Shown here piece by piece: positions 32,651 to 64,000 of a stretch of 64,000 nt of DNA. This stretch comes from Mytilus edulis. Taxonomy: Eukaryota. A program made the translations under genes and the position numbers. The stretch is from NCBI RefSeq assembly GCF_963676685.1, contig NC_092349.1, forward strand, positions 14,384,001 to 14,448,000, given 5' to 3'. How positions within the stretch are numbered: position 1 is the stretch's first letter; every line of letters begins with the position of its first letter. The notes under the pieces were generated by a model, which had not been told where the DNA came from, did not search any database, and saw nothing but the letters and a program-made list of their open reading frames with translations.

Positions 32651-34432
32651 ATGAATGAATGAATGAATGAATGAATGAATGAATCTTTATTTCCTCCATG
32701 TATATGAAGATTTTGCATACAAAAAGAAATTAATAATTATTTACACAATAAACAAAATATCATACATTTTGAGATAAATACCAAATGAAAAACAAAAACA
32801 TATTTAGATATCCACACAATACACATATAGTATACACAACAAAAACACAATGTTTTTCAATCAAAGTCTATTCAAAAATCAAAATTAAACCTGTTTTCAA
32901 ATAATACATGTCTGAATTTCTTAAACATGGGGTACACATTTTTTGCTATGTAATACATCATTCTAGACCAATCTATAGGATCGAGATCGTATATTATATC
33001 ATTAACAGCTCCTAATAGTATTTCTTCAAGAAGGTCATCGTCGCCTAAATTGAAAATGTCCACAGATTTTTGAATGGGAAGTTCATCCACAATTTTATAA
33101 AACATAACATTTCTCTCTGTTAATAGAACATGACACTCCATAATTAAATGTTTAACGATATCAAAAGACTGTTTGTTACATAGAGTACATGTAGCTTTCT
33201 TAATGGCTGCCGATCCTAAAGCCACAAGTACTAGCAGTTCGAGTTTTGCGTCGGGATATAAAACTGTCAACCGAATTAATCTATGTTCACAGAGGGTAGG
33301 ATGAATTTTGGAATACCTTTTGAGTTCATTTCTATTTTCTAAATTACTTTTCCATCTGTTCTCTTCATAAATTTCAATAGACTGACGGACAATTTTCGAC
33401 CACAGCACTTTTTCTGGTATGTAATCCTCATTTACATAGGTTTCAAGGAAAGAAAATAGATCGTATTTAACCAGAGTTGTTATAAGATTATAGGTTATAG
33501 AGTGTTCGGCATTTTCATCCAGAATAAATTGACTGATGCACATGTTGAACAATTTTTTATGAGTTGTGCCCGATTTACTCCTACATAATCGCCCAAAGAA
33601 TAAAAGTTTGAATTTGTCAGTTTCAGCTTCCAATGACTATAAACCAAGGTTGCTTGTAGTTGAGTCCGTTGGTGAATATTTGTCCATACACTGTATATAT
33701 CGCGCAGCATATCGTTGTGTTCTTTCTAAAAGTTCTATTTCAGAATTTGAGAGTTGTCTCCATACTTCGCAAGAGTACAATGCTGTAGGCAGAACAAAAC
33801 GTTTCCATATTAAAGTGTTTGTAATCGGCGTAAGGCCTTTTGGGTTTACTCCAGCACTATACAATGGGTGTAGATTTTTCTTTAACTTCTTAGCCGCATT
33901 TTGTGTCCTTTCAAACGTTTTGTTATTGTTAGTTATCAATGTACCAGCATAAATTGTATCAGTTTTACACGCTATTTTTGTATTTCCAAGCTTAATGTCA
34001 ACATCTGTATTATTATTAAAAGCCAAGACATAACTTTTTGTTCCGTTATATTTAAGTCTCCATTTACAAGCATAAGTTTGTACACAGTCGAGAAGACCTT
34101 GTAGACCTTTTGGCGAAGCACTAAGAAGGGTTGTGTCGTCCGCCAGAAGAATGGCAGGAAAGTTTAAATAACCAATTCGTATTCCACAATTTGTCGAAAT
34201 CAGCTGTAATATTAAGTCATTTATGTACAAAGAGAATAGCCAAGATGAGAGTACTCTCCCTTGCCCTACACCCTACAAAATGGAGAAATTGTCACTAGTA
34301 AGTCCATTATATTGCACATGTGCACTAGCAGATTTGTAAGACATAAAAAGTATGTTCCATAGTTTACCGGTTACACCGATTTCTTTCAATTTCAGAAAAA
34401 GTCCGTCGTGCCAGATCTTGTCAACTGTTTTC
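32651..34432 (-). mobile_element. 5'-truncated non-LTR retrotransposon (LINE) RT + C-terminal CCHC region, pseudogenised
   Basis: Minus frame reads KIWHDGLF...GVGQGRVLSSWLFSLYINDL...LLADD...KWRLKYNGTKS...LYSCEVW...CTLC..HLIMEC. In-frame stops at ~34273 and 33637-33639. The 3' end is AATAAAG followed by an (ATTC)n tail at 32651-32685. Confidence 0.92.
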
Positions 34433-35567: not shown

Positions 35568-37694
35568 AATGGAACGCCACAGCTGTCGTATGTGGAACTC
35601 TGATATTACGACGTTGTTTTATCATTACTTGATGATATTTTGTTTTAACATAATATGGTGTTGACATTGCGTAATGATGTTTTGATATGACTCAATATGG
35701 AATAGTCATTACTTTATGATGTTACGATATTACACGATATGGCTTCGTATTGAATTGATATAGTTGGGCGTATTGCATTTCTGCTAATTTTTTAAAGTCC
35801 CAATACTACGTTTCCGCAAATTTAAAGTATACGTTTCCGCAATTTGTATTTATTACTTTTCCGCAAATTAAATTACCTGGTAAATTGTAAATTATAAATA
35901 TTTGAATATTTGAATATCATATATAAGATGAATTATTATTATTTTTTTTTAATAAAGACAAGGTTCTGATCTATCTTATATCTACAATATACTAGATATA
36001 ACTAGTTGACTCTGGTAGGGATTAGTTAAACTTCATTGAGAAACCCAATGAAAATTATTTGTTTTAAAAGTGTTCACCTTATCCGTAGACATAAAAAGGT
36101 AATCACACTCAACATTTGATCACACATCAAGATGGATCTGGTACATACAGAAACGAACAGAGGAAAGAAATGCATAATCTACGACGGATTTTCCTATAGA
36201 TCGTCAAATATTTTGAAGAATGGGGATAAAGTTTACAGGTATGTACAGTTTTACAAATATTAACTTTTCTCTGAATAAAATGATGTAAATATTTGATTTA
36301 ATGTTGTAGGGGTGTATACAATTAAAAATGATAGAATTTGTTCATACTTTGCCAAAACGTTGTATATATTTATTGTGAACATTAATTTCGTAAACGTAGA
36401 TAAGCCGAATATAGCGACTGAATTATTCGGGTTAGCAAAATAGCATAATATGAAAGAGGGACGAAAGATACCAAAGGGACAGTCAAACTCATAAATCTAA
36501 AACAAACTGACAACGCCATGGCTAAAAATAAAAAAAGACAAACAGAAAAACAATAGTACACACGACACAACATAGAAAACTAAAGAATAAACAACACGAA
36601 CCCCACCAAAAACTAGGGGTGATGAAAAAGATTCATTGAAAAAAAGAAAATATTTTAGAGTTACCTCCCCTTAAAATGCTTATTTGAAAACGTTTACAAA
36701 AGCAAACAAATATAATTCACGCTTTTAAAATATCAATATTTGTAAGTTAAAATTTTATAAATTTGTTCCTTGGAATGAAAATTCATATTTATTATCTGCA
36801 TCCATCTGACGACAAATGTATGAAGTTTGCCGATTATATCTTGGAATTTTACATAGATGGCAATTCCAGATTTCCACCAACCATTTGGGCATCACCTCCT
36901 GATCCCGAGGAAAAGAGAACGACAAATGGTGCCGAGTCTTTTCATGCCCACCTGAACGAGCAGTTTTATGCTAACCATCCTAACATTTTTGTTTTTGTCG
37001 ATGTTTTACTAAAACTGCAAACAACATCTTACATAAAGATGAGAACTCTTACTGTCAAAGCACCTGTTCGCAAATACGAAAAGGAAAAGATGGACTTCCT
37101 TCTAGAGCAAAATTCAAAACTTGTAAACGGACAATATACTACTGTGGACTTTGTAAGACGTGTTGGGTACAAGTATTCTGCCAGAACTGACTTATGAACT
37201 ATTATCATTCAAGATACATCTGATTAGTGCTGAACATACGTTTGCGTACATTTTTATGATGAATTTTATTTGCATGCTATGATGACCTTTAACTTAATAA
37301 ATATTTATTTTTTATTTTGGCTTTGCTTTCGATCAACAGGTATTCCTTAATTATTTGCGAAAAAGTAATAATTTATTTTTTCCGAAATAGTTAATTTTTT
37401 TCCGGAAAAGGTAAGATATGTATTTGCGGAAACGTAAACCTTTTTTTCCGGAAACGTCATCTTTTTTTTCCGGAAAAGTAATGCCAATTTGCGGAAACGT
37501 AAAACGCCGATATAGTTTTTTCATTACTTAATATGGTTTTGTCATTACTCGAAGTGGTTTCACCTTTATTTAATGTGATTGTGTCATTAGCAAAGTGGTT
37601 TTACCATTACATGATGTGTATGTAACTTCAAGTAATGAAAAAACAACATCATGTAATATCAGAGTTCGACATAAGATAGCTGTGGCGTTCCATT
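35568..37694. mobile_element. Non-autonomous TIR DNA element hosting a nested MULE
   Basis: AATGGAACGCCACAGCTGTCGTATGTGGAACTCTGATATTAC ... GTAATATCAGAGTTCGACATAAGATAGCTGTGGCGTTCCATT. Flanks share TATAGT, so the TSD is 4-6 bp and its boundary is ambiguous. Confidence 0.85.
35766..37508 (+). mobile_element. Internally deleted Mutator-like (MULE) transposon
   Basis: GATATAGTT is duplicated at 35757 and 37509. Termini GGCGT.../...ACGCC with repeated ACGTTTCCGCAAA / TTTGCGGAAACGT subterminal motifs. FLYWCH-type first exon 36132-36238 (MDLVHTETNRGKKCIIYDGFSYR) and C-terminal transposase piece ~36800-37197 (RTTNGAESFHAHLN...HPNIFVF); the central DD region is absent. Confidence 0.85.
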
Positions 37695-39023: not shown

Positions 39024-42000
39024 ATGGCTGAAGAGCAACCCCCAAGAAAATTCCAAGAATTAGAGGCAAGAATTTTTCAAGCATAGAAGTAAACCTTATA
39101 AGTAGAAGAGTTGTTGAAGAATTGGGTCTACTGAGAGGGAAATTCGGGAAGGATGTTACAGCAGATGCTAAAAACAAAATGTGGGAAAAGATAACTGCTG
39201 AAGTGAATGCTCTAGGTGTGAGCTACAGACAAGTTCTAACTGTAAAAACCAAATTTAGAAACTTAACAAGAGATGCCAAAGACAAATTCACGTATGAAAA
39301 AAAGGAGAGAAACAGGACAGGAGGAGGACCTGCTCCAAAGCCAATAAGTGTTGCTGAGGAGAATATTATAAATGCCTTAAAAGACACCTCCTCCTTCAAA
39401 GGAATTGATGATGGGATGGAAACTTCAGTGGGCAAGTATTTTTGGTTTACTGATGTCAATAATGTGCTTCCATTTATTTCAAACAATAAATCAGACGGTT
39501 ATTTTATTTCTATCTTAGAAAATAATGCAGAAAATTAATATCTCTGAGTGCGTCGTCTGCTATGACATTAGGATATCCCGTTCAACGAAATTCCCTACAG
39601 ACGTCGCCGATGTGCTATAAATAGAATTTTATGTTGTGTTATAATTACAACCTTCCTCTTACCTGATATATACAAATACCTTCTTGTGGTATTGATGAGA
39701 ATAATTATCACATACAAATATCTTTTCATCGTTAAAAATAAGGTTTAACTATTGTTTTGCAAGAGGTAAAGTTTGTTGGCCATCACCTTTGGCGGTCAAT
39801 TCTGTATTGCCCCTTACATCATCTTTTACCACAATGAAAAAAATTGAGCTGTGGTAAAATTTTCATAAAAAAAAATCCCATTACTTTTAAAGATTAATTA
39901 AATTTCAATAAAATTTACTTGTTAATACTTGTAACCAAGAAAAAACTTGGAATTAGTACTTCACCAAAAGTCATTGTAACATGTTTATAGTCCATTTCGA
40001 AATAGCCCTGCATTAAAAATTGAGTTATCTTTCTTTGTGCCTGATTTTTTTGTAATTTTCACTTTATCATTTTTTCAGGGTTTCCTCAGCAGACAGAAAC
40101 AAGTGAGAGTACACCAACACAATTAAGTATACAAGGTATGTATCTAAAGAAGATAATAAAGCATACACATTACTTGCAGTAATATTATAATTGTAACCAT
40201 AAGTAAAGAGAGAGATTATTGTTACAAATAATTTGGTATAAATTTTAGAGTGTAAGTATACTCAATACAGGGGGGATCAAGCAATTTTAAAAGAAGTTTC
40301 AACTGTATGTAAAAAATGTTTGTATCTATGAATCTATGCAAATCAATATTCTTTGTTCTTATTCATGTATGCTCTGTATGCCCCTTGTGGGCCCATAAGA
40401 GTTCTTATGATCAATCAAATATCCAAAAATAAAATTATTGTTAAAAAATTGAAATATAATGTATCTTCATTTTATTTCAGAAAGCTCATCATCTGATCCA
40501 ATATATTTTGCTGAACCTGTCAGCTCACCAATTCCAGCACAGATTGCTGTCTCAGGATGCCAGACATCTGATGGTAATCATTACATAGATTTTTGTATTA
40601 TGTTAATCGTAAATTATTTTTACAATTCCGCATTTCAAAAAAATGAAGATGCAATGTTTCGGAATCAATATTTCATTAAAGAATTGAGGTTGATATAAAA
40701 TTATATTGCTGTGAAAATAATCTATATAATTATATATATTTATAAATTTACTCATTGAGGGTCTAATACAGGATCTCTGTAATAGCACGCTTTAAGTTAA
40801 TTGTGTATCTATCTATTGACTTTCTTTCATTCAATTGGTCTTTATATATTTTCTCAAGTTGAAATTTACACAGAATATAATGACTTATGGAAAGAAGTAA
40901 CAGCTATATTACTTTTTTACTTTTTTTCTTTTTTACAATACCTTTCTCCAATCTATGTTGTTCAATTGATTGGGATTTTAAGTCTTGAATATATGTATCT
41001 TGACTGACACATTTAAATACATATATTCATTTATACATCAACTTCATTTACAATTTGGTGGATTGTTGTCTGAAGGTCTCTTAAGCAATCCTAATACCCC
41101 CCGTATGTTTATATACTAAACAGATAACAAATGGCTTTCCCAATTGAATGGATTTACACCAGTAATATTTGGGGCCCTATATAATAGTAGCTTGCTGTTC
41201 GGTGTGAGCTAAGGTTCTGTGTTGAAGGCCTTACCTTGACCTATGATGGTTTACTTTTATAAATTGTTACTTGGATGGAGAGTTTTCTCATTGACACTAA
41301 TACCACATCTTCTTTTATCTACCCTATATGCAATGTATACACATTCAACTGAGGCAATTTTAATGTTTCTTTAATCAAAACTTTCAGAACCACCATCTTC
41401 TGTGGAGAGTATATGGATTAGGAGACTGGAAGAGGTTCATCAGAGAAATAAAGAAACACGTTATACTGAACATGCAAACCTACCTGTGTCTGCCCAAATA
41501 CCTCCTTCATGCCCTAATAGCAGCACTCAGCAACCACCTAAAGCTAGGTATATGTTTTATATGAAAGAATACAACAGCCTTTTAATTTCTACACACTAAA
41601 TAAGTTGGATATGTACTGAATGCTCTTGAGTGTTGTATATAGCTGGCTTTGAAACTTTTTTAGATGGAGTCATCACTGATGTACGAGTCTTTTGGATCTG
41701 AATACATCCTGGAATGTAATTGCTTATTGCTGAAGGGATTGTGATGATACATCTTGACTTAATTGGGCTTCCTTTGGACTGTGCCCCATATTTGTCTGAT
41801 TGGAAATCATACCACATCTTCTTATGTATAAATGATTTGAATACTGATAAATATTCTTATAGTGCCAATAAATCACTCATGTAAATGTTTTGTATGAGAT
41901 TAATATGCATATTTGTTATGAATTAACCAGTTATTGAACTTCAAAAATAGTTTGAAAAGGAAAACTGAGTGGCTAAATTTAATAAAATGAATAATTGTAT

Positions 42001-42764: not shown

Positions 42765-45700
42765 TCAACGATTAAAAAATGTGGAGGAAATGTGGTCTCT
42801 GACACCTCTTCCATCCTGATTACCAAAGAAACGGTCCCCAAGATCTCCATCATTGTCTATCACTAATCCATCATCTTCAATGTCTGGTTCATTAAGTAAG
42901 ATGCAAATATTGTGAAGAATAGCACAAGCCATGATGATCTTGCATGCTTTGCTTGGTATCATTCTTATCTGAAACCGAAAAGTGAAAGTTATGTAGAATT
43001 ATTGCCTTTTTTAACTATAGCATGTCAATTTTATTATAATTTTTATTATCTTATTATACAGGGCCCTATATAAAAATATTATCACACAGATAGATTCAGC
43101 ATATAGATCCACAAAAAAATAAGTTTCTGATAAAAACCGAACAAAGTTTAATTTTGGAGACCTCAGTGTTGATCAATTTCTAATGGGGCCAAAATATTTA
43201 AATAAATAACAAGATAAGAACCCCAACAAAAAATGATTTTTTTTTTTTAATCAACTGCATTTTTTATGTTCTATAGATACATGTATAGGAAGATGTGGTG
43301 TGAGTGATCATTTGCTTAAAGAATTTTTTATGCTTTACCTCTGAGTGTAATATGTGGAACCTTCTCTTCAGCCTCCCAAATGTTCTCTCTATCACACTTC
43401 TGGTTGAACAGTGGCATCTGTTGTACTTCTTTTGATGATCAAGTACAGGATTCTGATATGGGGTCATCAGGAATGGTCGACAAGGATAACCACTATCCCC
43501 CAGCAGTACACCATTTGCCCATCCACCATTCTGTTCCATGTAGGTACACACCTATACATAAAAGTTTTAATTTCTTTTTACAGCAAATATTTGGTTAAAA
43601 CTTCCATTTTTATATTTAAATTGATATATTCAGCTTCGCAGGGAGGAGTTACACTATTTACCTAAAATAATATTCAGCAAGACTATTTTTTATATATTCC
43701 CTTTTCATTTATTGTATATCAATATTTTTTTTCATCATAAGCAACCCTAAAAACTAATTGATTGCTGCTTTATATGTATAGAATAATTGATTTTTTAACA
43801 TAAATTATTCACTAAAGATATTTCTATATTCTTTTCTCAGTTATTGTATCTCAAGATTTCTTTCAACAGGTTGCTTCTTTCTTAATTAATTATATAAATT
43901 TCCAATGATAAATTAATTATTTTGAACTGAAATTCAAAAGTCCTTACATTGACATTTTCACACCTTTATGTGTATCTAATGACAAAAAGTAAAAAATAAT
44001 ATTGATAAGAGCAAATAAAAATAGTGGTTTCATAGGCGGATCCATGGGGGGACTGGCCCCCCTTAGGTTGGAAAAATTTGGTTGAATATATAGGAAATCA
44101 CTGAAGCATGACTGGAGCGGAACCCCCCCTTTAGGTCAGTCAGAGGCCCCCCCTTTAGGAAAAGTTCTTGATCCACCACTGGGTTTTATGTCCAAGAAGA
44201 AGATTTTGACTTCCTGCAGTGGTGACCAATCCAAGATAAGAGATTTTAATTCTTTTATTGAGAAAATAAGAAGTCTGGACTGACTGCTAACATATAGTGC
44301 TTAAAAGGGAATAAAACTTATAAAAGATGACCAACATTGCAATAAAATACATACCTGTGAAGTCCTGAATATGTGGGAGTCATGACTGCTACCTGGCCAG
44401 TTTGCATTTATGTTTGTGAATTTACCTGCAAAATATAGATAATATATAATGCAAATAAGAAAGAAATGATGTAATAGCATAAAAAAATTTACATGTAACA
44501 AATTGTCTTTGATTAATTATTATATTTTTCTAATTAAGAGGTGTAGCAAAAGTTTAAAGAGAGGATTATTTAGTATCATGCAACAATGGACTTTAAAAAT
44601 AAAATTTATTTGAATCCATATTTTAAAAGTCTTGTAATGGTAATCTTAAAAGGGGGTGTCCAAACATTTTAAATTATTAGTGTATATAAACACAATGAAT
44701 AACCATGACAACTGATGTACAATGCAAAATTTATGCCGTTACTTTTCTGGTTCAAATTGTTTTACGTTGTCATTCCGGAGACTTTTACAGCTGACTATGT
44801 GGTATGTGTCTCGCTCATTGTTGAAGGCCGAACAGTGACCTATAGTTGTTAATTTCTGTGTAATTTGGTCTCTTGTGGAGAAATGTCCCATTAGCAATCT
44901 TACCACATCTTCTTTTTTAAATGTATAGACTTACAAATTTTGACTCCACTGTATTGTTTCAAACTAGGAACCATGATATCAAATTAAAAGTTGTAATGCA
45001 TGTTGCATAAGGCATAAATGTGCTGATCCAGTCATCAGAGCAACATCAAATTATAAATTGTACAAAATCTAGAGTACTCTAGGTTAATGTTTCTTTTTTT
45101 TTTTTGGATTGAAAGGGGGAAATTCAAGAAATATATCAGAAACAGCAGTGGTAGATACAGGATAGGGAAACCTCCCTTTTTAAGTTTATCAGTGTATTTG
45201 AATGGGGACATATGGTTGGAGCTCCCCTTCAGGCTTTATCTTATGTTGGGAACCCCCCTTTTTGGAAATGGCTGGCCCCTGAACATAATCTTTTTCTCAT
45301 TAAAGAAAACTAATATCTTCTTTTAATATTTGACTTACCAATATTTTAAGTTATCTTTAGTAGGTAAACCATATAAAACCCTAATCATGTCCTAGATGAT
45401 CCGTGATGAACTGAGTGAAAGTGAAAGTAAAAGTGAAAGTAAAATGTTCTTTTCTGAGAAACAGACTATAGGGGTCCCAGTCACACTGAAAAGTTGATAC
45501 CAGTTTATTATTTACGAAGGTCAATGTCATATTAGATGAGAAATGTTTTACCTTTGGCATCACAAACAGCCTGCACATTTACAGAGTGTACCCCTTTCCT
45601 ATTAACGAATGATGCTTCATCTTCTGATGGAGCCTGGATACGGACGTGTGTCCCATCTATTGCCCCTAGCACATTCGGGAAACCACTTAGACGGTAAAAG

Positions 45701-46302
45701 TCTCCTCTTGTTTCCTCCACATTCCTTGGCCACTTGATAAATTGATCCCGCTTGTTACAAAGTGATGTCAACACATCAGACACAATTCGCGAGACAGTTC
45801 CCTTGTGCAAACCTGTAAACAGACCAAAAACATACAATTTGGGAGATCGTTTAGAACAAAAAATAAAATGTGTATTTTACCGGCGTTTGTTTACATTTCG
45901 AAAATTAACAAATTGAAATTATCATTCAAACATCAGTCAAAGATCATTATAGCAATTGATTAACACAATTTTACTAATGTTTACTTAATTGTAAATCATA
46001 TATGATAAATATATAAATGAAATCTTACCTATTGTGTCTCCAACTACTTGCAAAAAACTGCCTGTAGCTAGAAATCTCAGGGTCACCATGACCATCTGTG
46101 GTACAGTGAGAGCATGGTTTCTCTTTGTTTTTCTTGTTATATCATCACTGACTAGATTAGAAATGAAATTAATTCCCTCTCTACCAAAGCGATACCGTTT
46201 TCGTAACTCCTCATTTGACAAATTCACAGAAAGGTCATCTTTCAGGCGAAAATGCCTTTCTTTTCTGTGAGGTGCAACAGGTACTTGTCTAAAGGCGGCC
46301 AT
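42765..46302 (-). CDS. Harbinger DDE transposase (HARBI1-like); exons 46302-46029, 45812-45552, 44425-44355, 43551-43339, 42968-42765 (340 aa, apparently intact)
   Basis: Motifs [72 protein letters not shown] introns with phases 1,1,0,0; 1023 nt with no internal stop. Confidence 0.96.
44031..44181. mobile_element. Small GC-rich MITE (GGCGGATCC...GATCCACCACTG ends) in a transposase intron
   Basis: Imperfect TIRs CATAGGCGGATCCA / TTGATCCACCACTG with internal G- and C-runs; a related piece lies at ~45145-45280. Confidence 0.55.
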
Positions 46303-46613
46303 ATTTAACAATAACTTAAATATTTAATCGACCTCCCAGAAGTTGTTAAATTTAACGACTCGTTATCATTATTTTTGTCGTTAAATTTTTTGAACAACAG
46401 TTAACGAATTTGTTAAATTTAACGACACTCTAACGACACTTTAACGACTGCGTTAGCTTAACGACACTTTTGAACAACCGGGCCCTGATTTTGATGATAC
46501 TTTGTAGTTGTAGTAACAAATATGTTTAGGTTTTCAAGAACTGTATTAGAGATTTGGCAATAAGTGGATGACTCCTACCCTGGTCCGACGAGGAGTATAT
46601 TTATAACATAAAG

Positions 46614-54600: not shown

Positions 54601-54929
54601 AAATGTATCAGCACATGTTGATTCTATATTTTTGTTTAAGTTATTTGCCATAAGATGTTAACTGCTATTATTGAATTTATATTTCACAGAATTACAGGGC
54701 TAATTTGACCCTTCGTGAGCCTACTCCTTTATATTAAAAAAATATGTTCTTATTCCCTATATATAAACATATATGACTTTTAACACTTGCAAACTTTCAT
54801 TTGTTTTATAAAAATATTAAAACGAATACCGATAATACCATTTTACATGTTATAAGCATATCGAAGATTGATTGGAAAATTAAACATATAAAATTTAAAC
54901 ACACCACATAAGACTGGTAATTTTGTTGA

Positions 54930-56800
54930 ATATTTATATTCCTATTCAAATGAGTCGTCTTTTGATTTTGTAGTTAAATACTCCTGTTCTGGTTTCAAGG
55001 AGTTGTCATTTAACTTTTGTGGCATGTTCATGTTCTTGATCTAATGAATAGTCTGTTCATTTTGTGGCGTACTAATGTTCCTGGTCCAATGAGTCGGCTT
55101 TTGATTTTGTTGCATATTCATGTTGTTTCTTCAATGAGTCGTCTTTTGATTTTTTGACGTTGTGTTGTATTCATGTTCTAGATCCAATGAGTCATCTGTT
55201 GATTTTATGTCATATTCATGTTCTTGGTTCAAAGAGTCGTCTGTTGATTTTGTGTCACATTCATGGTCTTGGTCCAATGAGTCTTCTGTTAATTTCGTAG
55301 CATATTCATTTTCTTTGTTCAATGAGTTGTCTGTTGATATTGTGTTATATTCATGTTCTTGGTTCAATGAGTCGTCTGTTGATTTTGTGTCACATACATG
55401 TTCTTGGTCCAATGAGTCGTCTGTGGATTTCGTAGCATATCCATGTTCTTGGTCCAATGAGTTATCTGTTGATTTTGTAGCATATTCATGTTCTTGGTCC
55501 CTTGAGTTGTCTGTTGATTTTGTGGCATGTTTATGTTCTTGGTTCAATGACTTGTCTGTTGATTTTGTGGCATGTTCGTGTTCTTGGTTCAATGAGTTGT
55601 CGGTTGATTTTGTTACATATTCATGTTCTTGATCCAATATGCTGTCTATTGATGTTGTGGCGTTTTCATGTTTATAGTCCAATAAGTTGTCTGTTGATTT
55701 TGTGGCATGTTCATGTTCTTGATTGAATGACTTGTCTGTTGATTTTGTGGCAGGTTCGTGTTCTTGGTCCAATGAGTTGTCTGTTGATTTTGTAGCATAT
55801 TCATGTTCTTGGTTCAATGAGTCGTCTGTAGATTTCGTCTTATATTCCTGTTCTTGGTCCAATATGTTGCTTATTGATTTTGTAGCATGCTTATGTTCTT
55901 GGTCCAAAGAGTCGTCTACTGATTTTGTGGAATGTTCATGTTCTTGGTTCAATGAGTAGTTTGTTGATTTCTTGTCGTATTCATGTTCTTGGTTCAATAT
56001 GTTGTCGGTTGATTTCGTAGCATATTCATGTGCTTGGTTCAATAAGTCGTCTATTGATTTTGTGTCATATTCATGTTCTTGGTTCAATGAGTTGTCTGTT
56101 GATTTCGTGGCATATTCATTTTCTTGGTTCAATGAGTTGTCGGTTGATTTCGTAGCATATTCATGTTCTTGGTTCAATAGGTTGTCTGTTGATTTTGTGT
56201 CATATTCATGTTCTTGGTTCAATGAGTTGTCTTTTGATTTTGAGGCATGTTCATGTTCTTGATCCAATGAGTCGTCTCTTGATTTTGTGGCATATTCATG
56301 TTCTTGGTCCAATGAGTCGTCTGTTGAATTCATAGGAAATTCATGTTCTTGGTTTAATGAGTTGTCTGTTGATTTTGTGGTATTCTCATTGTCTTGGTTC
56401 AATGAGTCGTCTGTTGATTTCGTGTTATATTCATGTTCTTGGTTCAATGAGTCGTCTGTTGATTTTGTGTCATATTCATGTTCTTGGTCCAATGAGTCGT
56501 CAGTGGATTTCGTAGCATATCCATGTTCTTGGTCTAATGAGTTATCTGTTGATTTTGTAGCATATTCATGTTCTTGGTCCCTTGAGCTGTCTGTTGATTT
56601 TGTGGCATGTTCGTGTTCTTGGTTCAATGAGTCGTCTGTAGATTTCGTGTTATATTCCTGTTCTTGGTTCACTGAGTCGTCTGTTGATTTTGATAAAGAT
56701 TTATCTTCCTGTTCCACTGAATCATTCTCCGAGTTTGTTGGATATTCATATCCTTGCTCCAATGAATCGTCTGTTGATTCTGTTGTAGATGTATCTTCCT
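54930..56800 (-). repeat. 45-bp coding minisatellite (~36 in-frame units of TKSTD[DN]SL[DN]QEHEY[AD], plus ~5 degenerate units past the stop)
   Basis: Plus-strand unit TCATGTTCTTGGTTCAATGAGTTGTCTGTTGATTTTGTAGCATAT with strict 45-bp periodicity. Confidence 0.97.
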
Positions 56801-59800
56801 GATCCGTTGAGTCTTCCTCAGAGTTTATTATGTATTGATTTTGGTTGATAGATGTGGCATGAGAGTCCTCATAAGAAAGTTTTCTTTTCATGAAAACTAA
56901 ATCCTTTAAAATCGGCGAACACTGTCTATACAGAGACAAAACTACTAATCGGTTAATCTTGATAACAGCGGCGGACTTACTGTTATACTTTTTTATGAAA
57001 AGATACATAAAAAATACCACAAAGAACTTGTTTTTGTCAATTTGTGTTGGTTTTTCTAGTAGCAGACTCAGTATTTCATTATTTCCATGAAATAGGGCCA
57101 AATGCCATGGTTGGAGACTAGCAAAACCGGTTGCAACATTTGTATCAGCACCATGCTCTAATAAGACTTTGCACACTTCAATATTTCCGTTTTCTGCGCA
57201 CATGTGTAATGGATACTTATTAACATTATAATTGTACGAGGAGAAAAATTCGACAATTGTTTCTTTGTCTTCGTAAATGATCGCATATGACACGGCTAAA
57301 TTTGCAACTTCCATACTCTCTGCACCTCTTTTCAACAACGACTTCAAAATAAACTCATCTGCGCATAAGCAGGCTACGTGAATAGGTGAAAGCATACAAA
57401 TACTATCTCTGTAACCAGTTGAAAGACACAATTTGTCTACATGGCTTGTCAAATTCACGAAAAAATATATATGCCAAACCGATAGTTGACATATTTCATT
57501 TATTGTTTTTACTTGCGATGAAATCATTCGTGTTAAAGGGGCACTAGCTACGATATATATAAAAAAATAAAGTATGATTTTTTTTAGATCAATCATTAAT
57601 CAAATTGGAATAATGAAATAATAATTTGCTTTTAGCAATCAATTTCCTTTAATTTTGTTGAAATAAGCGATTAAACATAATTTTTGACTGATTCACTTGC
57701 AAGTGAAAACGTCATCATCATTCTAACCGGTATTCATGTGAACTTCAAGTTAATCCCTAGCTAGAGATTGACAACGCATGCATTGTACGTATACAGGTTA
57801 TTTAAAGAAAAAGAATGTCAACAATGAAAGTGAAACTACGGTAAACCATTTGATTACGAATTCGATGCACATAAAATCATTCTTATATGGTTAAAAAGAA
57901 TGAGAAACATCTATTTTTAATCTATAAAATAAAATCAAACAGACCTATAAAAATACAATTGCACGTGTTGGTTTAATCTATTCGTATCTTTTTTTTTGTT
58001 TACATCGCTTATATGGTCATCTGAGGTCAAATCGATAGTTAATTAGATGGCGTCTGGACTAAAATACACACGAAACGAACCTATATATAATCTACCCCAT
58101 GCTCTGTAAACTGTTTATTTTAGACTTTTGATAGTTTGGATAAATGTTTTACATTGTTATAAACCAAATATGAGAATTTGAGTCAAATCGGTTACAATGA
58201 ATTTGATAGCTAGTGCCCCTTTAAAGCTACACTTTTTGAAAAACAAGCTAAATGTAATGCACTAAGTTCCGAATGTGTTAAAATTACTTTTTCTTCAGAC
58301 TGTTTTAATTCTAGGGTTAATATAGCTGGTATATATAGGTTGGTCCTTCGTCTAATGAATAACTCTGCAATTTCTGCATTTCCTAACAGACAAGCGATAT
58401 GAAAAGCAGTTAGTTTGAATGAAGAATTTGAAGATATTAACTGCGCAATATTTTCATTGTGCCTAAATTTGATATGGAGAGGGAATATTCTACAAATAAT
58501 GTCAGTTCTATCTGTTTTTCTTAATAGTGATAATATAACTGCTTCGGCTTCCATCAAACTTGCAATATGCAATGGTGTTAATTCAGATTTTGTACCGAAG
58601 AGTTTCTCGTTTTTTTCACCACACAGATGCTGATTGGTAAGGAATTTCATGTGCAAAAAAGAAATATTTGTAGCAATACTGTTAAAGTCGCATTGGATAT
58701 TTGATAAGACTTTTAACCCAGCGTTATGTTGTCTAAAACATAAAATATGAACTGCAGCAATTTGTCCTAATTTTTTAAAGTTTTCATTTATAGTATAAAA
58801 TTTTAAGTATTGTATGTTTTCGGTTAACAAAATAATATGTAGTGAGGATAGACTAGCAAACGATTTCACACAACATTTCATTGTAAATGACCGCAACAAA
58901 CGCGAATTTACATCTTTAAGGCAAGCAACATGCAGAGTTCCAATTTCTGCACTCAAGTTGTCATGCAGAAACGTTTCCATTGTTTTTAGCGATACATCAT
59001 TTTCATCTAAGAAACACAGTAGATGAAAATACGGAATTTCATAGTTAATGTTCATATCATCATTCCTGTACATTAAACATTGTAAGTTATTATCATTGTT
59101 GTGTAAACATGCTGCAATTGCGGAAGTTATTAAAACTCTTTTTTCTTTAGCCTCGCTCATTGCAAAAAATGTATTACAAATAATCCCACGAGTTAAATAC
59201 TGTAGTTCTAATGCTGATAGCATTATTCCTTTTGATGGTATGCTACGGAAAATACTTTCAATATCAATATTACGCAAACAAAAAAAGTCACAAATTTCCA
59301 AAAGCATGTTATTATTTGATACACTGGTTAAAGTAAACATTTTGAGTACGGTAGTCCAATCTTTACAAAGGCATGCATTTAAAACAATACTAAAATTAAA
59401 AGGTTTTCCTATTGTAAAGAGGACAAGGTCTTTGTTTTGCTCTCTGTCGTTCAACACTAAGGCACATAACAAAAGATCCATATCTTGTATTACACGTAAA
59501 TTTGATAAATCAGTGACAACAAAATCTGGCAAATGATCGCATATTTCATCAGTATGCATTTGATGCAGTCTACAATACAATGACCATGATAGAAAGTTAA
59601 TAGAGCAAATGCTTTTTAAATTTTGTTCATTGAATATGTTTAAGATTGCAATGCAAGGATCATTACCAACAAAAAGTAATAACAATAATGGTGTCACCGT
59701 CACAGACGTCTTCATTATACCAGGTTGTCTCATTAAGTTTTCTAACAAATAGGGCTCAGAAATTAAACAACATACTTCAAAATAGGAAGTGTTAAAGACA

Positions 59801-62800
59801 AACAGGTTCCTACTGAAGTAACGTATATTTAAACTCATCAGCTTCCATGTTTTCCACCAAATAAGTAGAACTACAAAATAGATGAATAATTGGCATGGTA
59901 AATGTATTGATCACATTGATGTTATATTCCAGAATTATCCTTAAGTGATCCGTGTATCCTCTGAAGCAGATAAAATGAATAATTGTTATATCTATGCTCT
60001 CAGTGAAATCAAAGCATTCGGATGAAAGAGAAGCTAATGTATCATTATTGTTTACTAACAAGGCAACGGACGGAGCATTAACAAGACATCTAGATACAAG
60101 TGGAAAAGTAGCTCGCCAGGTTAAAATCAATGATGTGATTTCTGAGTTGATTGCAATAATGTCTAGAAGACTAATGTTTGCTGTATCCGTCACAACGGCA
60201 TGGTTTTCTAATAAAATATTAATAAGTTCACAATTGTTTGTTAAAGTTGAATACAAAAGAGGCGTTACTTCGGTCTGGCAATCATCATCTTGTATGTTAT
60301 ATTTTTTTACAACTTCAATAATAGATGAATGATTTCCAGATACTGACGATAAAACTGAAGAAGTAACTGTAAATTTACCATTAACATCAACAAGACCGTT
60401 ACATAAAAATGTGTTGACTAGTTTAGTGAAGCCTAAAATCAAAGCTACTTGAAATGGTGTAAGATTAAGTTTGATTTGATATTTTGTATCGTCATCATAG
60501 GTAAAATGATTCTTTTCTATCAACGTATTACAAAAAACAGACACTTCCATAAAACACACAGGATGCAATGAATTATTTAGCAACATGTTAAGCATCGAGT
60601 TGTTGTTTGACAATACGGATATATATACTGGAGAAAATTCCTCATATTGTAATTCGGGATTTGAAGAGTTGTGGACACATTTTAATCTGATAGAACAATC
60701 AGCATTTCTATTTAGTAAAACACTAACAATGTCTTCATTATTTAACAAACAGGCCAAATGAACTGGTAGTATATTTTCTAACCTTTTGATAGAGGTTTTC
60801 CCTAAAAGGTTTTGAACACCCTGTCCATAAACATCACTTGCAAGATTTATTGACGCATTTGCATCTAGCAGTTTGTGAATCGTATTTACATTTTGATTTG
60901 AAACAGCAATTAAAAGAGGTGTTTCGCCGAAAGCGTTGAGACTATCTACATTTCCTTCAGATGTGATTAGTTTGTCTAGAAGTTCTTCATCCTGCATCCT
61001 ACACGCAAAGTGCATAACACTATCTACATCATTAACTGCATAACCAGCTTGAAAGTAACAAAGCATCTCTTTCAATACTGATTTCATTGGCATGTAAAAT
61101 TCATTTATAATGTGGTGTCTTTTCTCTTCGAATTGTTTTAAAATGTCAAAAGTTTTCAGTTCAAGTAAAACAGAAAGCACATTTTCATGTGAGGAAGAGC
61201 AAGCTAACAACAATGCATTTTCACCATACGCACTTAAAGCATTGACATTTGCATTGCTCTCAATAAGCAGTCTCACAATTTTATCATTACCATTTGTTAT
61301 TGCAATTAGAAGCGGTGTGATCTTACTAAAGGTTGCTTGACTTTCTAAATTGATATGGTCACAGTTCAATAAATATGTTACCACGTCGAAATTACCTGCA
61401 TTACATGCAATGTGTATAGCTGCGTGACCGTCATTGCTGCGTTGTTTATTTATATCTATGCCTAATCTGTGCAAAAAGTGCAAACATGTTGAAGTACTCC
61501 ATTCTGCTGCTAAAAACCATCCTTCATATAAAACTTTCATTGGTGTGTCTTTAAAACAAGAATTGATTAACAATTTGACAAGTGAGACTTTGGATTCACC
61601 GCAAGCCCAAATGAATTCGTTTTCAACAGCTCTTTGTTCGATCGTTGTTATACTTAAAATATCAACTACATCACTAAGTTGTCCATTCAAACACACCTGG
61701 TGAAATGACGCATTTACATTTATATCCGCGCCACGCTGTAACAATAGTTTTCCAATTTCTATATGGCCATTTTTGAGACTTGTGTGCAAGAGCGTCTCGT
61801 CGTTAAAAATAACTTTATTAATATCAATTTCAGTATTATATTCTAATATGATGTTCATAATGTCATATTGTCCTTTTACGCAGGCACGATGCAAGAAGAA
61901 GTCACGTTCATGGCTACAGACATTCCAATGGGCATGATAGTTCAGAAGACGTCGCATAATATCGATGCTACCAATTTTAAATGCAAAGTATAGTGCTGTT
62001 TCACCCATATAATGACAATAATTCACATCGGCATTGTGTTGCAATAAAAGATCTAACATTTCAACATGCTTTTGTTTGCAGGACATTATTAACAAACTCT
62101 CACCAGTTTCATTTATCACATTCGGATTTGCATCTTTTTTCAATAACATTTCTGCCTCTGCAATATTATTATGAATGCAAGAAAAATAGAGCGGACTATA
62201 ACCTTCATACGAGGTTAAATTCACGTTTGCATTCTTTTCAAGAAGTAAACACGTAATTTCGTCATAACCTAAAAAGCAGCTTATATAAAGCGGTGTTTTG
62301 CGATCAATATTGAAGACATTCGTTCGTGCTTTGTTTTCAAGTAGTATCAACAATATATCGTTTTCTCGATCTTTGCATGCTTTAAACACCAATGTTTCTT
62401 TCTGTGGTCCATATCTTTTATCAATATCAGCACCTTTCAAGATAAGTATTTTAAGCATTTCCTTGTGTCTGTTATCATAAGCAATTGAAAGTGGTGTCAT
62501 TCCTGAGCTACTTTTGATATCCATATATTCTTGAATAAGACCACCAATAAAGACACTCTCTTCAGATTGCAGGAGCAGATGTAAACATGCCATATTATTT
62601 GTCTTGCATGCAATGTGCAATGCATTTTCTCCGTCTCTATTTGTAAGTAATGGATCTCCACCATTTTTTATCAAAAGTTCAAGTATATGCGTGCACTCAT
62701 TTCTCGTCGCTATATGGATAGGAGTATCAAAATCTACAGCACGACAATTTACGCTTGCATTGTTTGACACAAACAATTCAACAACCTCTGTTTAGTTAGA

Positions 62801-64000
62801 CTCACAAGCATAGTGAATTGGGGCTTTGTTTTGATGAATAATCGACGTGTCTTGAATAATCACTAAAAGATCTCTGATCGTTTGTATATCACCTATTATA
62901 CAACTTTTGACAAATGTTTCAAACAAAAACATCTCAACTGATGTTTTAAAAACTGTTCCGTCAATTTCACTGTTTTGTAACTCCTTCATGTTTTTAGAAA
63001 AACCTGCCAGTATAGTATTTGATATACGACAACTTTCGAATATAGAAGCCCCGTGTTTTAGAAGCGTTTTCAAGATTGTCCAATCAGCACTGAAACATGC
63101 GATTTGTATTGGGGATAACATAAATGTCTGCTCTTCTCCGGAAACCAAGTCAAAATCTACGAGTAAACCATGAATGCATATAACCTGTTCTGTGTTTATT
63201 AGAATTGGACTATCTATATAATTAGGAAGGTTAGCAATATTGCTTCGTAATAACATTTCGACGATGTTATAATTTCCCATTAAACAAGCTATGTGGAGAG
63301 GAAGAATATCGTGAATAATACTGCAATCAAAATATTTGTTGAATGCTATTTCAGGCCTATAAGTGCTCTGACAATTATTGGCTAAAATGTGAAGCATCAT
63401 TGGATTAACAGAACATTTTAAATTAATTCTTGCTTTGCTATCTAAAAGCATCTTAACAATATTCTCATTATTGCAGATGCTTGCTATATGTAATGCTGAT
63501 ATTGGAAATTCCGGAGTATTAAGATAATTCAACCGTTTATATGCAATTATTTCTATAATATCAACTGCCTCTTTACATTGGAATATCGTGAGACATATAT
63601 CGTCAATACATGTAAGAGTGTTAACGTTTGAATGATTGTTCAATAAAACTTCTACCATATTTTCATTTTTAAAAATACAGGCAACAGATAGTGGAAAACT
63701 TTCTGTTCCAAAACAACTGTTTGGTTCAGCTCCACTGTTTAATAGAAGCTCCATTATATCTAAGTTTTGTTCAAAGCATGCTATTTCCAAAGGAGTTACA
63801 CATGTATCATGCCACTGACCAACTTTTGTCAATAAAGAATTGATATATTCAGGAGATCGAATCGAATAAGCGGCATGCAATGTTAGTTCTTCACTTGCAT
63901 TAACAGCAATGCAAATATCCTTTTGAAGAAATATTGAGCACATCTCATAATTATTCAAAAGACATCCTATATGAAGAGGAAACGGTAAAACTGTAGACTG
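55131..64000 (-). pseudogene. Giant intronless ankyrin-repeat gene with C-terminal 15-aa tandem repeat, disrupted; 5' end lies beyond the window
   Basis: Four consecutive minus ORFs are full of TPLHIAC/GADVN-type ankyrin motifs, and the frame is open to 64000 (QSTVLPFPLHIGCLLNN). ORFs 62792-63958 and 59810-62776 are in the same frame, separated only by TAA (CESN*TEVVELF). There is a frameshift near 59810-59900 and a MITE at 57537-58220. Confidence 0.88.
57537..58220. mobile_element. 684-bp TTAA-target MITE (Kolobok-like) inserted in the ankyrin coding sequence
   Basis: TTAA|AGGGGCACTAGCTA ... TAGCTAGTGCCCCT|TTAA: perfect 14-bp TIRs and TTAA duplication (57533-57536, 58221-58224). Confidence 0.95.

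Follow-up and report, generated by a model that had tools for sequence, protein, structure and literature searches.

A Broken Allele of a Likely NLR-like HEPN–nSTAND3–Ankyrin Receptor Gene in the Mussel Mytilus edulis

Four long minus-strand open reading frames (ORFs) with Pfam ankyrin matches lie end to end at one edge of a 64,000-nucleotide stretch of the Mytilus edulis genome (C6:14384001-14448000, hereafter the window). They raise the question of whether this region holds several ankyrin genes or the remains of a single, very large one, and of what such a gene would encode. The frames, taken from the ORF list, occupy positions 62792-64000, 59810-62791, 58210-59910, and 55131-57599; the ankyrin matches in the third of these all fall under the Pfam cut-offs. 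A preliminary description of the sequence had proposed that repair of three lesions would join the frames into one single-exon protein that ends in an acidic tail of 15-residue repeats, and that an N-terminus beyond the window might make it an immune receptor resembling the NLR proteins. Our analysis indicates that the locus is likely a broken allele of a four-exon HEPN–nSTAND3–ankyrin gene, whose intact product would likely be an NLR-like intracellular immune receptor with a tail that was likely translated. Positions past the window edge are given below as extended coordinates, which equal the C6 position minus 14,384,000.

The four ORFs are indeed one gene. Once the lesions are repaired, the coding stretch in the window forms one colinear frame of ~8.2 kb (~2,730 codons), as had been predicted, and this frame runs 2.2 kb further past the window edge to a start at extended 66189. 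The frames and splice borders define a terminal exon of 11,059 nt (10,371 nt without a 684-bp insertion), of which the part in the window spans 55131-64000 on the minus strand. Three short coding exons on the same strand sit 6-8 kb past the edge: exon 1 with the ATG (extended 71826-72042), exon 2, which carries the HEPN_DZIP3 core with the motif RNKIAH (extended 70988-71220), and exon 3, which encodes a helical linker (extended 70075-70291). Because these three exons lie upstream of the giant frame, the gene has four coding exons, the last of 10.4 kb without the insertion, and is not the single-exon gene first envisaged. The splice borders of the exons at the locus are canonical, an RNA contig that is ~90% alike bridges exons 1 and 2, and the joined exon segments match the M. 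trossulus protein XP_063419201.1, which is built from the same exons. The read-through product, with X at each break, is ~3,679 residues long and comprises the HEPN domain, the STAND NTPase, ~31 detectable ankyrin repeats, and the tail. The locus is colinear with a 3,101-residue frame on contig C8, its closest paralog, which is intact and has the same three upstream exons, and with P0053, a database protein with an intact open frame of 2,924 residues.

The reference sequence carries four lesions in this frame rather than three. The in-frame TAA at 62792-62794, the frameshift, which is a 2-nt deletion at 59815-59816, and the 684-bp element at 57537-58220 are all present as first described; the fourth, an in-frame TAG at extended 65591-65593 (minus strand), lies 1.6 kb past the window edge. 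We compared these positions with other individuals in four DNA runs, each from a different study, chosen from the 14 of 24 runs that contained at least half of the sampled words. In all four, the TAA is a sense codon at full depth, two extra letters are present at the deletion, and the insertion site is empty. Among the changes listed, all four runs also show one of the two letter changes at the TAG, and run X3 shows both, which yields a sense codon; the position is occupied by a residue in the proteins P0044, P0048, P0051, and P0053. In run X1, none of the 37 non-element differences listed over ~8 kb creates a new stop. The ankyrin array and the beginning of the tail share one frame in these other individuals as well. 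The reference haplotype differs from X3 at no fewer than 18 positions in 680 nt and thus represents a distinct allele. Judged by its sequence, this reference allele is dead, that is, pseudogenized.

The element at 57537-58220 is flanked by a TTAA duplication and has perfect 14-bp inverted ends of the form 5'-RR...YY-3', and its removal restores one frame across the site. PMC9587614 gives TTAA duplication, 5'-RR...YY-3' ends, and inverted ends of 11-18 bp as the hallmarks of Kolobok transposons, and describes KolobokP terminal units of ~450 or 660 bp that also occur solo in Mytilus coruscus. The insertion shares the duplication, the terminal letters, and the length range of the inverted ends with these elements, and differs in its own length of 684 bp. 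Its sequence features identify it as a non-autonomous Kolobok-type element. Its size is near that of the solo KolobokP terminal repeats, and it appears to be young and high in copy number: a first look gave 2,603 candidates, the best 40 of which are other near-full-length matches of 98-100% identity.

The exons beyond the window bear out the expectation of an NLR-like N-terminus. Pfam profiles identify a HEPN_DZIP3 domain (PF18738; E 3.6e-26, 92.1 bits versus a cut-off of 27) with an intact Rx4-6H motif (RNKIAH, residue 125), followed by an nSTAND3 NTPase (PF20720; extended 65690-66142, minus strand; E 4e-25, 88.8 bits versus a cut-off of 27.2) that covers profile positions 1-153 of 155. The Walker A motif, GNSGVGKS at residue 262, fits GxxxxGK[ST]. 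The Walker B motif reads ED in the reference allele and DD in X3, P0044, P0051, and P0053; among 22 family loci with a Walker A motif, it is DD in 20 and DN in two, and ED in none. A NACHT domain carries the signature D[GAS]hDE according to 10.1101/2022.07.19.500537. The locus protein has no NACHT match, and its Walker B region reads FEDVCG or FDDVCG instead. NB-ARC is matched only at E 0.038, under its cut-off, and the repeat families matched are ankyrin families only, with no leucine-rich repeat (LRR) sensor. Because both the NACHT signature and the LRR are lacking, the protein is not a strict NLR; its sequence is that of an NLR-like tripartite plan, with effector, STAND module, and repeats in one chain. 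The same three families are found together in P0044, P0047, P0049, and P0050.

Structure prediction for the NTPase module was carried out on the C8 paralog, which is ~40% identical to the locus in this region. The 400-residue model (predicted local distance difference test, pLDDT, 87; predicted template modeling score, pTM, 0.81) has a predicted AAA+ core followed by a helical and winged-helix extension. Its top Foldseek matches are a wheat resistosome, NOD2, Apaf-1, NLRC4, a maltose-system regulator, and EfAvs5. The top rows of a VIA comparison include 8bob (Z 13.7, root-mean-square deviation [rmsd] 5.9, 302 residues aligned), NLRP3 (Z 13.1, rmsd 7.5, 316 aligned), NRC2 (Z 12.8, rmsd 5.1, 260 aligned), and SAMD9 (Z 12.6, rmsd 4.8, 281 aligned). 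The best STAND structures align 260-331 of the 400 model residues (Z 12-14, rmsd ~5-7.5), whereas plain AAA+ proteins mostly align ~190, which is the core by itself. The STAND module is therefore predicted to resemble those of NLRs and of bacterial Avs5. A fold search with a 990-residue model gave ankyrin-repeat structures only, among the matches listed, as did the top 60 listed matches of a PDB profile search; a profile of the NTPase by itself gave P-loop matches only, and PADLOC returned models of the ankyrin region and a weak PDC-S73 match.

A giant exon had seemed exceptional when set against the window's other genes, but it is the norm in the family to which the locus belongs. In the same genome, the helical module behind the NTPase matches at 150 of 150 scored places (from 406 candidates), so that there are at least 150 family loci. 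Their median open frame is 926 residues, with 64 frames of at least 1,000 residues and seven of at least 2,000; a multi-kilobase exon is the rule, although the exon described here is the longest seen. In a separate search, HEPN_DZIP3 matched over its cut-off at 150 of 150 scored places. Of 20 other long members, 19 have a Walker A motif and 30-68 ankyrin matches in one frame, and the twentieth is split by a stop. Both the giant exon and the broken allele are ordinary.

The nearest named proteins to the locus all come from Mytilus. Proteins that combine PF18738, PF20720, and ankyrin repeats include XP_063419201.1 and XP_063448450.1 from M. trossulus, CAG2201963.1 from M. edulis, and CAC5357848.1, CAC5357841.1, and CAC5357851.1 from M. 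coruscus, under names as bare as 'ANK', 'ankyrin-1-like', 'uncharacterized', and 'unnamed'. Their domains and segment order are those of the locus protein, and over the first 1,200 residues the identity per 200-residue block is 90-96% with XP_063419201.1 and 59-78% with CAC5357848.1. Unlike the locus, these records are fragments or truncated models; none holds the full array, and only CAG2201963.1 has any of the tail, namely about two units.

Several known systems resemble parts of this architecture. PMC9646362 describes HEPN-NACHT NLR-like proteins of the pearl oyster, proposed to be immune sensors and RNases, that likewise have an N-terminal DZIP3 HEPN domain with Rx4-6H, a central STAND module, C-terminal repeats, large expansion, and haplotype variation. 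They differ in having NACHT with LRR, TPR, or WD40 repeats (ankyrin is not mentioned in that main text), whereas the mussel protein has nSTAND3 without the NACHT Walker B signature. The account of the DZIP3/hRUL138 HEPN family in PMC3710099 reports animal fusions to ankyrin repeats, NACHT, and death folds, together with an oyster expansion; in the portion available it does not mention the tail, the giant exon, or a three-part arrangement around nSTAND3. Bacterial Avs5 (PDB 9jap, 9nc9) is a Sir2–nSTAND3–TPR/PPR protein in which, according to 10.1101/2025.07.08.663546, Walker A and Walker B are both required for immunity. It shares with the mussel protein the Pfam NTPase, an enzyme effector in front, a repeat sensor behind, and structural matches, but it is prokaryotic, its effector is Sir2 and not an RNase, its repeats are TPR/PPR and not ankyrin, and identity in structural alignments is 10-14%. 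Fungal NLRs, as covered in PMC13449251, offer a parallel for the lesions, as they include alleles broken by stops, frameshifts, and transposons that are intact in another strain, and they exchange repeats; their core is NACHT or NB-ARC and their effectors are different.

The domains and their pairings are thus already known, and the mussel family itself is little described. In the open-access literature found, the HEPN–nSTAND3–ankyrin family is not described, although the supplements of PMC7653742 and PMC9646362 may list its domains; the accessible portions of PMC8195603, PMC9334734, and 10.1101/2022.07.19.500537 contain no description of it. Repertoire surveys that look for NACHT plus LRR would miss this family. 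Its members, at 150 or more loci of a single mussel genome, combine long ankyrin arrays and a predicted RNase with the type of NTPase that is found in Avs5, an anti-phage system. In farmed bivalves, they are candidate agents of antiviral cell death. The present locus adds two handles, namely an apparent swap of its distal sensor and a tail that one type has and the other lacks.

The ankyrin solenoid extends on the minus strand from extended 64876, 876 nt past the window edge, to position 57048. The expected dozens of repeats are there in number, with 31 matches to a family-built profile, but only 18 reach 10 bits and the distal half is strongly degenerate. P0053 departs from the locus in its back half: identity is 95% over residues 224-1,600 and 74% over residues 1,651-3,110, and it falls off near 1,700-1,750. 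Pieces of an M. edulis model are 98% identical to P0053 versus 83% to the window, and the corresponding M. trossulus values are 91% versus 76%, so the P0053-type back half is found in at least two species. About two tail units are included in the model of this type from M. edulis. Searches of the mussel's own genome found the front half of the locus in single copy only. These comparisons point to an apparent swap of two distal-sensor types at the locus, with the second type being either an allele or a presence/absence paralog. Presence/absence variation is common in mussels (PMC7653742), and fungal NLRs are known both to exchange repeats and to be broken in some alleles only (PMC13449251). As a separate observation, contig depth over the 5' half exceeds that over the 3' half by a factor of ~1.4 in runs X2, X3, and X6, and by much less in X1; the step lies at window positions ~61500-61830, near the P0053 divergence, and hints at an extra copy that shares the front half only, depth not being copy number. 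Elsewhere in the genome, the family members L064 (C5 ~87.27 Mb), L070 (C12 ~5.97 Mb), and L074 (C12 ~20.57 Mb) have ankyrin arrays made of 219-bp (73-residue) tandem units in 23.3, 14.3, and 12.8 copies, with matches of 72-90%, reminiscent of the high internal repeat conservation of some fungal NLRs.

Behind the solenoid, a 45-bp tandem array of 39.1 copies (54920-56692) encodes the tail. Four degenerate units (56694-56873, minus strand) open it in frame with the ankyrin repeats, and the contigs of the compared runs are gapless here, so that the ankyrin-to-tail junction is covered in all four. There follow 34 core units (55164-56693, minus strand) that encode 510 residues without a stop or an indel, then 8 inserted nucleotides, which throw the array out of frame, and the TGA stop (55131-55163, minus strand). 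Past the shift are five further units (54927-55155, minus strand), three with a stop in the repeat frame and one with an indel. These 34 plus four units replace the earlier count of ~36 copies, and the 15-residue unit quoted at that time occurs exactly nowhere; the residue consensus is TKSTDDSLNQEHEYA. The core is 25.5% Asp plus Glu and 7.1% His, with a net charge of −87, and the tail contains 21 EHE triplets and 17 S/T-x-x-D/E sites. It is this composition that stands behind the earlier idea that the tail could bind metal or calcium or be phosphorylated. Similarity between units is 0.88 at a spacing of 24 and lower (~0.79-0.84) at other spacings, as for window positions 55388-55568 and 56468-56648, a pattern that points to a 1,080-bp block duplication within the array.

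The variation among units bears on whether the tail is read. Across the core units, 174 of 1,530 letters depart from the consensus, yet none of the 10 possible stop-making transversions is seen, whereas 36 out of 80 others occur (Fisher p 0.005), a value that is rough because the units are not independent and the array edges decay faster (7-11 versus 5.1 differences). The sole possible stop-making transition occurs only with a second change that gives Tyr, and units with a stop number 0 of 34 in the core versus three of five past the shift. Synonymous variants (15 of 26) and non-synonymous ones (47 of 98) do not differ (p 0.5), which speaks against selection on the residues themselves. Because stops are depleted while synonymous and other variants behave alike, the tail was probably translated, with its frame kept open but its residues unconstrained.

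The tail is also peculiar to this locus. It is absent from the C8 paralog, from P0053, and from the 20 long family members; these 20 have at most 156 residues after the last ankyrin match. C8, P0001, and P0053 end without it, and the M. coruscus model P0054 stops just short of the point where it would begin. The last ten residues of P0053 resemble a tail unit in another frame followed by a stop, which suggests that P0053 runs into such an array out of frame. A phmmer search of 1.84 billion representatives with a 330-residue junction-plus-tail query gave 26 matches. One is P0087, a 291-residue M. edulis gene model that joins ankyrin repeats to about two units; apart from P0087 and P0054, which matches the ankyrin end only, identity is 13-43%, and the three of these examined (P0069, P0072, and P0075) are unrelated repeat proteins. 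Ankyrin repeats and tail units thus do occur in one homolog, but the full array followed by a long tail was found in no database protein. Word-based searches, a weak method, of longer and near protein lengths also gave no protein with ankyrin repeats and a long tail, and strong matches in the mussel's own genome all lie in the locus array, with the four other loci examined being unrelated repeats or other frames. A tract of ~60 Asp/Glu residues lies between the NTPase module and the ankyrin repeats of P0047 (M. coruscus), and because this protein has its own tract, the family gained acidic inserts on at least two occasions.

HEPN RNases need pairing. By analogy with Avs5 and NLRs, the intact protein would rest in a closed state until its ankyrin solenoid bound a foreign or damage ligand; nucleotide exchange would then allow the STAND modules to oligomerize, and the HEPN domains so brought together might cut RNA and shut down or kill the infected cell. 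The tail would most likely be a late, dispensable, disordered polyanion whose length and charge, and not its sequence, are kept; a role as an electrostatic brake or solubilizer is speculative. A bolder version, which we consider doubtful as a whole, holds that a mussel family of at least 150 Avs5-like receptors couples ankyrin sensors to an RNase, that at this locus two distal-sensor types common to Mytilus species have been swapped on a shared HEPN-NTPase trunk, and that one of them took up a minisatellite whose product, a polyanion of 570 residues, restrains the RNase as an RNA mimic.

Several observations weigh against the assignment as a receptor, or against a clean picture of its intact alleles. 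One X3 contig seems to have a stop of its own at codon 277, directly behind Walker A (extended 66027), and this appears to be a second, independent null allele. Minor contigs in runs X2 and X3 carry one-letter indels. Models from M. trossulus and M. coruscus are either cut short or divided, with both M. trossulus models stopping or skipping near residues 1,220-1,260; given these and the X3 stop, null alleles may be common. No single record holds a whole intact allele with the tail, the contigs being unphased and the repeat array itself lying outside the comparison. AAA+ proteins without an immune role follow closely behind the STAND proteins in the structural comparison, as with NSF (Z 12.2, rmsd 3.0, only 189 residues aligned), the PF20720 signal is found in 14 of 14 control genomes and over the cut-off in seven, and the HEPN core has pLDDT <50 at residues 38-103 of the 990-residue model. 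A transcript of the reference allele or of the tail was not seen: the sole RNA contig over coding exons, among the pieces listed, is the one that is ~90% alike, and it may come from a paralog. Runs X15, X20, and X24 (three of 10 RNA or guessed-RNA rows) contain mainly intronic repeats, have near-zero depth on the NTPase exon, and are uninformative on expression; their 5-7% share of words probably comes from the transposon. No functional test of any family member was found in the literature.

Some of these points would also follow if the locus were decaying across the genus and the tail were a neutral minisatellite read in frame after an old stop was lost. We regard this as improbable, even though it accommodates the four lesions and odd Walker B motif of the reference allele, the apparent separate stop in X3, the truncated or split models of the other two species, the want of a relative with a long tail at the protein level, the unconstrained tail residues, and the final residues of P0053, which seem to read the array out of frame to a stop. 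General decay does not account for the contrast between the 34 core units and those past the frame shift in their stops, for X1 free of new stops among the listed differences, or for P0053 open over its whole length.

A broken allele of a receptor gene is also preferred over the reading that the lesions are assembly errors and the sequenced individual has a working gene. The stops and the deletion are found in none of the other runs compared, as errors would be, but the insertion is flanked by a target duplication, has inverted ends, and is nearly identical to many other copies, two of the three TAG letters are different in the X3 allele, and the divergence from X3 is that of a distinct allele; this possibility is very unlikely. 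We find it equally hard to credit a protein that serves as a scaffold or, in the manner of biomineral proteins, binds calcium or metal, with the tail as its working part, for which the acidic and His content, the EHE triplets, and the S/T-x-x-D/E sites could be cited. HEPN and STAND domains form the N-terminus, the stretch that precedes the tail shows no clear membrane helix (its best 19-residue hydropathy is 1.13), and relatives manage without the tail. That the ORFs are separate ankyrin genes, as the annotation of one piece as a 914-residue model (P0052) might suggest, is the least probable reading and is contradicted by the single colinear frame that spans the breaks in P0053, P0001, and C8 and by the absence of the breaks from all four DNA runs.

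Other features of the window and its surroundings are minor. Frames at 39032-39535 (plus strand) and 45535-46323 (minus strand) look like what we take to be a Myb/SANT-type protein and a Harbinger-type nuclease, and fragments at 32875-34272 (minus strand) and 36751-37194 (plus strand) presumably derive from a non-LTR reverse transcriptase and a DNA-transposon protein. Past the window, a 562-residue reverse-transcriptase-like frame (C6:14474695-14476380, plus strand; L013) is one that we assume to be Penelope-like. At C6:14482833-14484206 (plus strand; L014), a single open frame of 458 residues has a signal-peptide-like start and many cysteines.

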